A DNA stretch of 43,190 nt from an uncultured Thermoplasmata archaeon (GCA_964454575.1 CAYVTG010000004.1:1-43190); one strand, 5' to 3'; positions 25,491-38,139 are shown, numbered from the stretch's first letter. Notes: generated by a model not told the origin, from the letters alone. Made by a program: numbers and translations.

Positions 25491-25695
25491 GCCATCGTAG
25501 CTTTCTCACAATCTAGAACGAAGATTCCAAGAAGCTAAGATGACTCACTCCGTTCGCCATCGTAGCTCAGTCGGAATTTAAACAGCAAATTCCAACAACC
25601 TACGAAGGCTCATTCCATTCGCCATCGTAGCTCACTCGGAAAAACGAACAGATTTTTCCAAGAAGCGACGATTCGTTTCACTCGCCATCGTAGCT
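25491..25695 (+). repeat. Tandem array of tRNA-Thr 5'-end duplications separated by ~52-nt structured units
   Basis: GCCATCGTAGCT starts at 25491, 25556, 25621 and 25684 (the tRNA itself); periods 65/65/63. Confidence 0.92.
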
Positions 25696-25755
25696 TAGCG
25701 GTAGAGCGGCTGGTTTGTAACCAGCAGGTCGGGGGTTCAATCCCCTCCGATGGCT
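25684..25755 (+). tRNA. tRNA-Thr(TGT)
   Basis: Acceptor GCCATCG/CGATGGC, anticodon arm GCTGG-tt TGT aa-CCAGC, T-loop TTCAATC; CCA not encoded; T-rich tract follows. Confidence 0.96.
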
Positions 25756-25765
25756 TCTTTCTTTT

Positions 25766-26069
25766 TAACCCCACTTATCTTGGTTTCTAAACAATGAGGG
25801 CATTTCATGATGAACCTTCCCCCAGTCCTTATCCTCGATATGCCTATAGTTGAAATCCAGGTCTTCTCGAGTGTCTTTGATCGAGAGAGATGAGGAATTT
25901 GTAATTCCTCTAGATCAGAAAGCCGTGGTGTATCTAGATAGATGAAGTTCATCGCAGTTCCTCCGTATAGAGACAGCCTTTTCGATAAGAATTCAGATTT
26001 CTTTATCGAATCTAACATATCACATAATCGCCTCATCTTTTCCGTTATTTCATCCGAGTAACCATTCAT
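25766..26069 (-). pseudogene. AbiEii-type nucleotidyltransferase toxin remnant (50-nt insertion, truncated)
   Basis: LYGGTAMNF...PRLS in one frame continues as EDLDFNYRHIEDKDWG in another frame after 50 nt, then hits a stop near 25766. Confidence 0.85.
25867..25916 (+). mobile_element. 50-nt structured insertion related to the tRNA-array units
   Basis: Removing it rejoins RLS|EDLD. It carries a GA-hairpin-GA motif and GAGGAATT-TGT-AATTCCTC. Confidence 0.65.
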
Positions 26070-26876
26070 TCAAACACCTCTCAGAAGATCTTCTAGATGT
26101 TTTGGTACGTAAAGTCCCCATCTTTTTTTTAATTCGCTGGAAACATCTCGATCGATGTAAACGGGTTTCCATCCAGGAGTCGGTCTTAGGGGTTTTAATT
26201 TTTCTTTTTCGATATGTTCGTAGTAAGGTGATCGATCTCGTAGCATCTCCAAAACATATCCGCACTTCAGTTCTAAAGTCTTGTTATTGTAGCTTGAAAG
26301 TACATCCTTTATGTTCTTTAGAGAGATACCTTTGAGGTTCGCAAGACTTTTGAGACATTCCTCCCAACCTCCGCAGAGATCGGTTCTGGAAAGGCAATCG
26401 ACGAAGGTTCTTTCAAGATCCGTTACTTTCAAACTTGTGTTTTTGTATTCGATGGACGTGATGTGCCCGAGGTGGTGTTTATTTACGACGGGGATGTAAC
26501 CGACCCCTTGAAAATCAAATCGTCTGAACCTATTTTTTTTCGCTACTATGATGAAGATCCTGGTGAAAGCGGAATGTGCCGAACCGTGTAATTCTAACGC
26601 GGTGTGATATCCCAGGGCATCGCATTTTTCGAGTTTGTTGCCGACTAAGTATCGGTCCGCTTGAAAATCTTCTTCCAGTTTGTCCAAAGGAATACCATAG
26701 TACAAGCCTTTCCTGACCTTCTTTAACTTCGCTTCTTTGATGAGCTTGTGTAGATATTTTCTGTAATAATATTCGTCCTCGACATCGAATACCTTTTTTG
26801 AGATATGCTTCAGGTCTTGGACGTTGACGACCTTCCTCTTCAGGACCTCTTGGTAAAACCGTTCTTTTTTGTTCAT
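26070..26876 (-). CDS. AbiEi-type antitoxin / transcriptional regulator
   Basis: N-terminal wHTH (L.KVRKGLY), YHTALELHG, VTDLERTFVDCL.R..LCGG.EE, GY.LE; directly upstream of the abiEii remnant. Confidence 0.88.
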   Translation of the reverse strand: MNKKERFYQEVLKRKVVNVQDLKHISKKVFDVEDEYYYRKYLHKLIKEAKLKKVRKGLYYGIPLDKLEEDFQADRYLVGNKLEKCDALGYHTALELHGSAHSAFTRIFIIVAKKNRFRRFDFQGVGYIPVVNKHHLGHITSIEYKNTSLKVTDLERTFVDCLSRTDLCGGWEECLKSLANLKGISLKNIKDVLSSYNNKTLELKCGYVLEMLRDRSPYYEHIEKEKLKPLRPTPGWKPVYIDRDVSSELKKRWGLYVPKHLEDLLRGV

Positions 26877-26904
26877 CTGGATCCCCTTTTGTAGATGTGA
26901 TGCA

Positions 26905-26995
26905 TTATGTTCTCTTATATTGGACATTAAAGAACATACTTACATATAAGTTTTTTGTGGTTCTGTTACGTAATGTTCTACCATATGAGACATTA
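26905..26995. promoter_or_regulatory. Two related 25-bp imperfect inverted repeats flanking the abiEi TATA box
   Basis: TTATGTTCTCTTATATTGGACATTA (26905-26929) and TAATGTTCTACCATATGAGACATTA (26971-26995), 19/25 identical; minus-strand CTTATATG lies between them. Confidence 0.65.
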
Positions 26996-27148
26996 TATGA
27001 AACGATCACATTCAATTTCATCGAAAAAAAGTTCGGTGTGGTCTGCCGACGTGCGCTGTGAGAGATGGAAGTGTTCTTGATGTTATCCCTATACCCCGTT
27101 GCTTGCTGCGGCTGGGAGGTTCATTAATAAACGTGATTTTTAAAGAGC

Positions 27149-27183
27149 GTTCTGGATAGCGAATGCAGTGAGCTATTGTGAAC
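27149..27183 (+). repeat. Solo GA-NN-GNA-NN-GA hairpin of the tRNA-array family
   Basis: GTTC.. ATAGC GA AT GCA GT GA GCTAT ..GAAC. Confidence 0.6.
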
Positions 27184-27263
27184 AGTTGCTATTTTTATAC
27201 CCCTTCATAAACCCATAAACCTTAAAGAAAGAATTATATACAAGTTGTTTCATATTCTCGTTC

Positions 27264-33251: not shown

Positions 33252-33382
33252 AGTGAACGAAGTGAGCTAGTGCCGTAGAAGGAGGAATCTGTGATTCCTG
33301 CGCACTACGGGGCTTTTGTGTTGCAAAACCCCCGAGTATTTGGAATTGCTACTCAATTCCGAAACACTACGGGGCTTTTGTG
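33240..33382 (-). repeat. Tandem array of tRNA-Gln 5'-end duplications separated by ~50-nt structured units
   Basis: Top-strand CACTACGGGGCT at 33240 (tRNA), 33303 and 33365; periods 63/62. Confidence 0.9.
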
Positions 33383-36856: not shown

Positions 36857-36917
<61 letters not shown>

Positions 36918-36932
<15 letters not shown>

Positions 36933-37187
36933 TACCAATTTTTCATTTTTCGAGGCCGGGATTTGTTTCACGAGCTAAGACACTTCTTAGCGAGCGGTTA
37001 GAATGTTGAACGAAGTGAGGCATTCTGAGTTGAATCCGGCCGGGGCGCCATACCGATTTTTCATTTTTCGAGGCCGGGATTTGTTTCACGAACATGAATA
37101 CGTTTTATTCATGTGAGCGCACTGAATAATGAGCGTAGCGAGTTATTGAGTACAGAAGGCTGGCCGGGGCGCCATACCAATTTTCAT
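36918..37187 (+). repeat. Tandem array of tRNA-Asp 3'-end duplications with structured variable units
   Basis: GGCCGGGGCGCCATACC at 36920, 37038 and 37162 (periods 118/124); the first two copies share ~55 nt. Confidence 0.92.
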
Positions 37188-37236
37188 CTACCTGACAGAT
37201 AAATCTCTCATTTTGGGAAATGAAGAACCAGCCTTA

Positions 37237-38139
37237 TCACTTCCAGTCAACGTACTTTTTGTCCCTGAGTTCCATTATCAGATTTATAGCGGCGGTGGCG
37301 CCTTCACCCACCGATGCACTTATCTGTCTCACTCCACCCGTGCAGTCGCCGGCTGCATAAACCCGAGGCATACCGGTGAACTGTTTATCATCCACTACCA
37401 GTGTATTGTCTTCGATAGGTATCCCTAGACTCTTGGCGAAATCAAGAGAACCGCTGGTACCTTCAGCTATCATAAGTCCGTCCATTTTTTCGACACCATA
37501 CGGCATCTCCAATCCTTCTAATTCATCCTTACCCAGCACACTGATGATTTCGTCCTTTACCACAGGTATATCTTCAATTTTCAGTTTTTTAAGGAGACTG
37601 TCAGCAGCATCCAGGTCGTTACCGTTGGTGAATATTTTGATATCTGAGGTATACTCAAATAATTCTAAAGCCTCTTTGATCACCAGGTCTTCGGAACCGA
37701 TGAGTCCTACTTTGCGGTCCTTGAACAGAGGGGCGTCACATGTAACACAGTAGCTAACACCTTTTCCCTCCAGTTCTTCGATCCCCTCCAGTAAGGGTTT
37801 TTTATGCTGAATTCCCGGTGCTATGATCAGACCTTTTCCTTTATAAGAGTTTTCAGCGGTTTTGACTACGTATTTATCACCTTCGAGCTTAACCAACAGT
37901 GCCCTGTCTCCAACAACTACAGTCCCAAATCGTTCAGCTTGATTTATACCTCTGTCCAGTAATTCCGAGCCGGAGATTCCTTCCGGAAAACCCAAGTAGT
38001 TGTCTATCTTTTTCGCCTTTCTAAGCAGCTTATCCGGCTCATCCAATATCACCGTAGAAAGCTCCGCTCGGGATGTGTATATCGCCGCTGAAAGTCCTGC
38101 TGGCCCGCCTCCGATCACGATAACGTCATAGTCCTTCAT
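37237..38139 (-). CDS. trxB: Thioredoxin-disulfide reductase family FAD oxidoreductase
   Basis: IGGGPAGLSAA, NYLGF, GVSYCVTCD, YAAGD; start at MKDYDV. Confidence 0.88.
   Translation of the reverse strand: MKDYDVIVIGGGPAGLSAAIYTSRAELSTVILDEPDKLLRKAKKIDNYLGFPEGISGSELLDRGINQAERFGTVVVGDRALLVKLEGDKYVVKTAENSYKGKGLIIAPGIQHKKPLLEGIEELEGKGVSYCVTCDAPLFKDRKVGLIGSEDLVIKEALELFEYTSDIKIFTNGNDLDAADSLLKKLKIEDIPVVKDEIISVLGKDELEGLEMPYGVEKMDGLMIAEGTSGSLDFAKSLGIPIEDNTLVVDDKQFTGMPRVYAAGDCTGGVRQISASVGEGATAAINLIMELRDKKYVDWK

Follow-up and report, generated by a model that had tools for sequence, protein, structure and literature searches.

Organization of the tRNA-Asp locus

The window, by which we mean the whole 43,190-nucleotide stretch of DNA analyzed here, is part of a genome (G000, genus g1) of 1.87 Mb in 133 contigs, and the 5S rRNA gene at 1993–2114 (Rfam, 73.9 bits) marks it as ordinary chromosome. 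At the gathering threshold, Rfam recognized in the window only this 5S rRNA and three tRNAs, and no family for the module described here. 3′ of tRNA-Asp(GTC) lie two tandem units of ~120 nt and then a third copy of the tRNA 3′ end (Table 1). Upstream of the array are genes for lipid synthesis (UbiA and PcrB) and downstream is a pyridine-nucleotide disulphide oxidoreductase; no integrase was found with Pfam among these neighboring genes.

Table 1. tRNA-associated repeats and modules in the window, with the evidence for each.
Feature	Position	Strand	Evidence
Mirror-image 5′-end array of tRNA-Thr(TGT)	25491..25683	-	Antisense -74.5 vs. sense -48.1 kcal/mol; weak R1 match, 19.8 bits
Degenerate orphan core, no tRNA end attached	27118..27191	+	R1, 34 bits, E 8.6e-6
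Mirror-image 5′-end array of tRNA-Gln(TTG) (gene on - strand)	33253..33377	+	Copies, folding
tRNA-Asp(GTC), CCA encoded	36857..36932	+	ARAGORN; Rfam RF00005, 58.4 bits
T-rich tRNA-Asp trailer, head of unit 1	36933..36953	+	D1 repeat, sequence
Anti-T-arm piece, unit 1	36954..36965	+	Complementary 12/12 to 36912-36923
Core module copy 1	36965..37038	+	Model R1, 79 bits, E 2.6e-18; pair counts; fold
3′-end copy 1	37033..37050	+	Sequence, repeat search
Trailer 2 (37051-37071) and anti-T-arm piece 2 (37072-37083)	37051..37083	+	Repeat search, complement
Core module copy 2	37083..37161	+	R1, 79.4 bits; comparison with G001
3′-end copy 2 (37162-37174, T-arm part decayed) and 13 nt of trailer	37162..37187	+	Sequence, repeat search

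Each Asp unit runs in the same order: a T-rich trailer, a 12-nt anti-T-arm, two hairpins (hpA and hpB), and the tRNA 3′ end with CCA. The initial annotation had described an array of ~120-nt units that include the tRNA 3′ end with CCA, and the repeats bear this out. A 17-mer made of the tRNA-Asp 3′ end and its flank occurs three times (36920, 37038, and 37162; spacing 118 + 124), against 0.00 expected from 100 shuffles, and the 56-nt unit head (direct repeat D1) is present twice at 98% identity (36918–36973 and 37036–37091), the two trailers within it having one difference. The same annotation pointed to an antisense copy of the T arm. The piece GGCCGGGATTTG, at 36954–65 and 37072–83, is indeed an exact reverse complement (12/12; 0.00 expected by chance) of the T-loop/T-stem 3′ half at 36912–36923, with which it forms the inverted repeats I1 and I2, but the complementarity is in part trivial: the piece contains a T-stem 5′ strand, and a perfect stem is its own complement. 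The non-trivial excess amounts to 5 nt against the T loop plus 2 nt into the acceptor strand. At Asp and His, the anti-T-arm fits the genuine T arm upstream (12/12 and 10/10) better than the unit's own 3′ copy, which homogenization could explain.

Core copy 1 reads (G)TTTCA-CGA, hpA (36974–36991), GAGCGGT, hpB (36999–37027, with the top GA-AC-GAA-GT-GA), AGTTG, and the start of the T-loop 3′ part. The 3′-end copy that follows consists of the T-loop 3′ part, the T-stem 3′ strand minus one C, the acceptor 3′ strand, the discriminator G, and CCA. Core copy 2 has hpA at 37092–37114 and hpB at 37121–37151, topped by GA-GC-GTA-GC-GA, and appears from its sequence to be orthologous to the unit behind tRNA-Asp of G001, a genome of the same genus. 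All four hairpins quoted in the initial annotation are where it placed them, and they have a layout in common, not a sequence. On the sense strand, the two Asp units fold to -34.5 and -35.2 kcal/mol (z -2.5 and -3.1), compared with -24.9 and -24.0 kcal/mol on the antisense strand. Past 37187 the sequence is unique. Among low-depth pieces in the DNA contigs of four runs, one spans 37062–37347 without a change, and none was seen to have a joint at the Asp array. No RNA run containing the locus was found.

Anatomy of the units and their occurrence in the genome

For every tRNA called by ARAGORN in G000 (n = 28), copies of the first and last 12 nt were sought up to 700 nt to either side, with at most one mismatch. 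Upstream copies of the 5′ end were found at 10 of the 28 tRNAs, downstream copies of the 3′ end at 7, and one or the other at 14; the other two tRNAs of the window belong to this set, with three upstream copies at tRNA-Thr and two at tRNA-Gln. Behind Asp, Cys, Arg(GCG), Glu(CTC), Arg(TCT), His, and Lys(CTT), and in an array at the start of contig C18, the units of G000 follow a common plan. A trailer is followed by a T-arm complement, (G)GTTCR-YGA, hpA enclosed between GA..GA, and GAGC-NTT; then come hpB (a TRGAAT/ATTCYG-type stem with a GA-RY-NNA-RY-GA top), ~3 bases, and GAATCC, which the remainder of the T-stem 3′ strand follows; the unit ends with the acceptor 3′ strand and discriminator. 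Each unit closes with the specific 3′ end of its own tRNA, and the junction is always in the T loop (NNA-GAATCC).

In some relatives, the Thr, Ser(GCT), and Gly(CCC) units have just the sense T-stem 5′ strand and TTCA ahead of the core, which makes them simply a T arm with an insert. The plainest description of a unit is therefore a second T-arm-to-3′-end copy in which a core of ~65 nt is inserted in the T loop after nucleotide 57. The module is non-coding and about 105–125 nt long, and the Asp locus has two tandem copies of it plus a terminal 3′-end copy. Most units have an anti-T-arm in front of the core; the front of the commonest variant, GGGAT-GA-GAACCC-TTG-GGTTCR, is an antisense T arm whose halves, judging by complementarity, have two possible partners, the split T arm of the same unit and the genuine upstream T arm. 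Folding by minimum free energy yields a three- or four-way junction with a T-stem-like closing helix and a single-stranded acceptor 3′ strand. At two tRNA-Ser genes, the core is at the same place and inverted.

Other types of unit, at least two in number, also have the neighboring tRNA's acceptor 3′ strand at their end (G000 C2:41540–41820, C5:18497–18523, C13:26622–26647, C44:9790–9850, and C18:290–350). One has GCGAGYCAGTG followed by a GAAAAA..TTTTT hairpin, and the other starts with TTCAACTTGYTTGAAC, followed by GCAGCGAAAAA.

The hairpin core is a conserved structure

For the pairing analysis, 12 cores were aligned with MAFFT, independently of any model (alignment A2), and a covariance model (R1) was built from this alignment. 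In A2, 93.9% of cells in paired columns are paired, compared with 69.1% in shuffles, and none of 500 shuffles reaches the observed value. Both sides change in 17 of the 21 pairs, and controls with slid pairing give 32–44%. A second alignment (A3; 56 hits, 50 distinct rows) yields 93.1% paired against 67.6% in shuffles (0/500) and changes on both sides in 20 of 21 pairs; its rows were aligned to R1, which leans the pair counts towards the structure, and A2 gives the same picture. Over both alignments, slid controls lie at 32–47%. The hairpin core is thus a conserved structure, and the shared layout that the initial annotation noticed in two units is not due to chance.

The pair types comprise 851 Watson–Crick, 70 G·U, and 21 A·C pairs, and the excess of G·U over A·C identifies the tRNA-sense strand as the structured one. 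In the downstream arrays of G000, the sense strand folds better in nine of nine (sum -734 vs. -575 kcal/mol). Three places have a conserved GA..GA, namely the hpA base, the hpB top, and the P1 end; sheared pairing is not readable from sequence. At the 12 array loci, Rfam at E ≤ 1 returned only tRNAs and two chance-level matches lying on tRNAs.

Mirror-image arrays at tRNA 5′ ends

The arrays of tRNA-Thr(TGT) and tRNA-Gln(TTG) lie on the other side of their genes. At tRNA-Thr, the first 12 nt of the gene are copied at 25491, 25556, and 25621, each with a complement and a hairpin, and the strand that carries the structure is the one antisense to the tRNA. At tRNA-Gln there are two 5′-end copies and a GAACGAAGTGA cap at 33255–33265. 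Read on the antisense strand, the 5′ arrays follow the same grammar as the 3′ units: the complement of the first 12 nt plus G, a GA-NN-GNA-NN-GA cap, the complement of the tRNA-end piece, and a TTGGAAT..ATTCCGA-type hairpin. The initial annotation took the Asp array for a 3′-end variant of the same family; this holds, and it is strengthened by the core behind many different tRNAs and by the mirror-image grammar of the Thr and Gln arrays.

In the upstream arrays of G000, the outward strand folds better in 9 of 10 (sum -726 vs. -616 kcal/mol). Since the acceptor stem makes the two ends of a tRNA gene inverted repeats, a process acting on DNA would treat both ends alike, whereas RNA made from the tRNA promoter would not. 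The mirror symmetry suits a DNA-acting process that handles both gene ends in the same way. A single low-depth joint at the tRNA-Thr array that "goes back 52" was seen in one run and is not evidence.

Directly behind tRNA-Thr, at 25737–26927, are two small genes on the minus strand, one with an AbiEi antitoxin C-terminal domain and the other matching no family. Past them, 1363 nt downstream of tRNA-Thr, is the orphan core. In G003, a genome of the same genus, units follow directly on a tRNA with the same 3′ sequence, so the two genes and the orphan core may be an islet inserted in a former tRNA-Thr array.

Linkage to tRNA genes and distribution across archaea

In G000, R1 has 25 matches at E ≤ 1, of which 17 read outward from a tRNA no more than 200 nt away; the remainder are one inward match (Ser(GGA)), two weak ones overlapping tRNA-Glu, four at contig starts, and the orphan. 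Relatives contributed 40 strong matches. A tRNA could be called at 31 of these loci, and in all 31 the core is downstream of it on the same strand; the nine loci at which no tRNA was called are mostly contig starts. The first units in relatives begin 16–71 nt past the tRNA 3′ end. The tRNAs with a module include Asp, Cys, Ser, Thr, Arg, Gly, His/Gln, Glu, Lys, and Ala.

Two of the checks suggested by the initial annotation, a covariance model search and a strain comparison, were carried out. R1 finds the core in 41 of 44 genomes of the same family, in all 10 genera, with up to 18 matches per genome. Elsewhere it is sparse (8/133 other genomes in the class sample and 6/149 other genomes in the phylum sample). 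The six loci inspected in the class outside the family all have the same architecture; four of them are directly behind an ARAGORN-called tRNA (Trp twice, Leu(CAA), and one intron-bearing tRNA), at G070 an uncalled tRNA-Leu-like 3′ end precedes the unit, and at G035 the upstream DNA is masked. Outside the class, three of four inspected phylum loci have the architecture: two behind tRNA-Met and tRNA-Leu(GAG), and a high-GC locus where no tRNA was called; the fourth (G213) is doubtful. The modules apparently form a family, not described before, that accompanies many tRNA genes of Thermoplasmata-type archaea. Our literature search found no description of such modules in archaea, which does not show that the feature is unpublished.

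Turnover within and between genomes

Units of the Asp locus recur in relatives in varying number. G000 has units 1 and 2, G001 has unit 2 and a second unit 2 truncated inside hpB, and G012, from another genus, has unit 1 alone. G004 has two identical units, G024 one unit and a truncated one, and G002 a remnant. The initial annotation raised the possibility that read-through RNA has tRNA-like CCA ends. Where the tRNA-Asp gene is without CCA (G012, G004, and G002), the copies are without it as well; since the CCA of the copies mirrors that of the gene, the copies come from DNA or pre-tRNA sequence and not from mature tRNA.

Trailers are alike inside one genome and different between genomes, a case of concerted evolution. 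The synteny upstream of the Asp locus is kept in G000, G001, and G002, and downstream synteny breaks at the array. Arrays close in partial units with varied cut points. Other loci show comparable features: there are two identical 132-nt units at Cys, and the Ser array of G006 has four units that form a mosaic of hairpins. No clean pair of filled and empty sites with exact junctions was found in the genomes compared. Changes in copy number, homogenized trailers, varied cut points, and synteny breaks are together the turnover typical of a repeat element. On the other side stands unit 2 itself, in which the hpB strands AATAAT/GTTATT of G000 correspond to AATTAC/GTAATT of G001. These paired changes retain the hairpin and, if the two units are the orthologs they look to be, point to selection in place, i.e., to a host function over a passive repeat.

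Origin and maintenance of the module

With confidence no better than evenly balanced, we regard the module as non-autonomous, an element that is tied to tRNA ends and depends for its persistence on the single-strand structure of the tRNA-sense strand. Local multiplication, homogenization, and shrinkage or decay would proceed by recombination between the repeated 3′-end-plus-trailer sequences. Spread to new tRNA genes would use the T-arm sequence that is common to all tRNAs, and the gene-specific 3′ end would be acquired in the process. Because units start about 5–50 nt after the tRNA, the module is most likely carried passively on a tRNA read-through transcript, and this transcript is predicted to fold into a three- or four-way junction with a T-stem-like closing helix and a free acceptor-3′-strand (+CCA) tail. 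The patchy distribution counts for an element. As for an enzyme or mechanism of movement, none was identified among the Y1 elements and tyrosine recombinases of G000.

The main rival, less probable, is a host-functional trailer RNA. Selection would here act on a domain within the pre-tRNA 3′ trailer, or on a small RNA that the trailer gives rise to, with the spread among tRNA genes merely a by-product. Such an RNA might serve as a protein platform on its tandem G·A motifs, as an aid to processing or termination, or as a decoy or guide presenting the single-stranded acceptor 3′ strand (+CCA). Bacterial tRNA trailers with sRNA functions are known. Compensatory changes that keep the structure, also between apparently orthologous units, speak for this explanation, as do the excess of G·U over A·C, the non-Watson–Crick GA motifs conserved at three helix ends, and the position of the units close behind the tRNA on the same strand, with no room for a promoter of their own. 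The conservation of the architecture across the phylum also fits a functional RNA. It is harder to reconcile with a patchy distribution and a copy number that varies within a genus, where the same tRNA may have 0, 1, or 2 units, or with the truncation of many units. In addition, the upstream arrays are structured antisense to the tRNA, which is awkward for an RNA made from the tRNA promoter, and there is no acceptor 5′ strand in cis to serve as a partner.

It is unlikely, in our estimate, that the module is a new kind of self-propagating element with structure and not a fixed sequence as its guide, recognizing hairpins that precede an acceptor 3′ strand, whichever DNA strand they are on, and/or that the read-through RNA, with its free acceptor-3′-strand (+CCA) tail, acts as a guide or decoy for the enzymes of tRNA ends (RNase P/Z and the CCA-adding enzyme). 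The target in such a scheme would be the T arm on the sense strand or the complement of the D arm on the antisense strand, and entry at the hairpin loop combined with a re-made tRNA end would give outward arrays on both sides of a gene, with no known transposase or integrase taking part.

Scars of integrative elements are a considerably more remote explanation. Here, viruses or plasmids entering the region from the T loop to the 3′ end would have left attL/attR-type duplications, and the spacers would be their shrunken ends (mini cis-mobilizable elements). The direct repeat does begin in the T loop and pass the 3′ end into the trailer, like att cores; direct repeats of the tRNA 3′ part bound the insert; arrays coincide with synteny breaks; and an AbiE-like two-gene islet lies between tRNA-Thr and the orphan module. 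However, the "element" would be only about 85–105 nt long, with a conserved core common to more than 10 tRNA species, and there is no integrase in or beside the Asp array. The contigs of G001 and G024 have no second, distal same-strand copy of the 3′ end, although these contigs may simply end. Five viral contigs match a degenerate core pattern, yet none of the five scores with R1 and none has a tRNA. The T-arm 5′ half and the 3′-end copy are separated by the core and not joined as in attR. The initial annotation had itself named att sites of excised elements as a competing origin; we found no element, integrase, or virus with the module.

Least probable of all, to the point that we give it very little credence, is a T-loop intron, relic or working, or part of a split tRNA, in which the interrupted copy would be an alternative 3′ exon, and the core with the genuine 3′ end an intron at 57/58 removed by the splicing endonuclease. 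Non-canonical archaeal introns are known at this T-loop position, and the tRNA-His gene of G000 on contig C30 has a non-canonical D-loop insert of approximately 30 nt. Inserts shared by different tRNAs recall intron transposition (PMC3293823). An intact gene is nonetheless always in front of the interrupted copy, many 3′ copies cannot rebuild a T stem (one C is absent from copy 1, and copy 2 has a decayed T-arm part), and inspection by eye found no bulge-helix-bulge motif at the junctions.

Several more specific identities were rejected. A miniature derived from IS200/IS605 does not fit the resident TnpA element, which has unrelated left-end and right-end hairpins. This IS200-type element (705 bp, Y1 transposase only) is present in two identical copies, at G000 C5:17740–18445 and on C21; the C5 copy lies 130 nt behind the tRNA-Glu(TTC) array, and its end hairpins are of the TTCCCCAACC../..GGTTTGGGGA type. 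G000 has two tyrosine recombinases, one of them next to tRNA-Lys(CTT), with no consistent link to the arrays. The gene next to tRNA-Lys(CTT) is short (195 aa; C44:9029–9613) and tyrosine-recombinase-like, is on the strand opposite to the tRNA, and ends ~75 nt upstream of it; module units are present on the downstream side of this tRNA. A kink-turn or K-loop bound by L7Ae can be set aside by inspection: the alignments have no 3-nt bulge, and the GA pairs abut helices on both strands. Against the box C/D sRNA consensus there is no box C (RUGAUGA), and the box D sequence CUGA occurs only within the hpB 3′ strand. For a Cm56 guide, the anti-T-arm puts C56 at the fifth position before a D′-like ACGA in the short variant, which fails in the commoner variant; moreover, aTrm56 is present in the genome, so that such a guide is unnecessary. 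Hammerhead and H/ACA RNAs were rejected by inspection against consensus motifs, and neither has an Rfam match.

If our reading is true, the tRNA genes of an entire archaeal lineage have a hidden layer of modules that are conserved, structured, and specific to their tRNA; of the 28 intron-less tRNA genes called in G000, at least 14 have repeated ends. The core would define a new structural family of RNA/DNA, strongly covarying and with hundreds of members, fit for formal description. The arrays would also offer a tractable case for studying the duplication, splitting, and rearrangement of tRNA gene ends, with implications for how split and intron-bearing tRNAs arose and for tRNA genes as hot spots of recombination. 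For annotation, they are a warning that tRNA fragments beside tRNA genes are not always att scars.

Relation to known systems

The closest known case is that of the tRNA-linked 178-bp repeats of tyrT-tyrV in E. coli (rttR/tpr). In both, tandem units lie directly 3′ of a tRNA and each repeats the tRNA 3′ end from the T loop. We checked the E. coli locus and found three repeats of 178 bp, running from T-loop AATCC to CCA, with a 35-nt head present five times. The repeats are annotated (rttR, tpr) as giving a small RNA from the tRNA transcript. They differ in being confined to a single locus, in a 178-bp unit with a small ORF, and in having no core common to other tRNAs and no anti-T-arm; mirror-image 5′ arrays are not known there. 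The archaeal modules form a family with many loci, spread across a phylum and sharing a two-hairpin core that covaries, and their units are ~120 rather than 178 nt, with contents that differ by inspection.

Duplications at att sites and cis-mobilizable elements are alike in that tRNA 3′ repeats start in the T loop and extend little past the gene, in tandem accretion, and in rearranged flanks. Sublocation classes of tRNA integration sites also exist. Unlike these elements, the archaeal units are ~100 nt long and gene-less, with no linked integrase, and have a conserved core, structured on one strand, between T-arm halves.

The t-elements, the subject of PMC1920247 and PMC4326828, are processing signals that resemble tRNAs and occur in 5S precursors of Haloferax and in mRNAs of plant mitochondria. 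They resemble our units in being tRNA-derived structures in other transcripts and a source of RNase P/Z sites; they mimic the acceptor stem plus T arm, whereas the archaeal units are without an acceptor 5′ strand and hence have no acceptor helix in cis. The non-canonical introns and split tRNAs of archaea, the subject of PMC3293823, PMC3218864, and PMC4033280, share with the modules the interruption of the T loop and related inserts at different tRNAs. They are unlike the present case, where the extra copy stands behind an intact gene and many copies are unable to yield a working T arm.

Other repeats and tRNA variants in the genome

Other tRNA-associated sequences were observed in G000. A 101-nt tandem repeat family occurs downstream of tRNA-Ser genes (C12:33700–35742, C70:2600–2900, and C20:1–100; loci L029, L020, and L021). 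Its units have two A/T-stem hairpins capped by GAGCNNAGCGA, and the array on C12 is split by a transposase-like gene of ~1.5 kb. The tRNA-His-like gene with the ~30-nt D-loop insert, at C30:18449–18552 (L016), is missed by ARAGORN and found weakly by Rfam (29.3 bits), and its inserted hairpin resembles the hairpins of the 5′ arrays.
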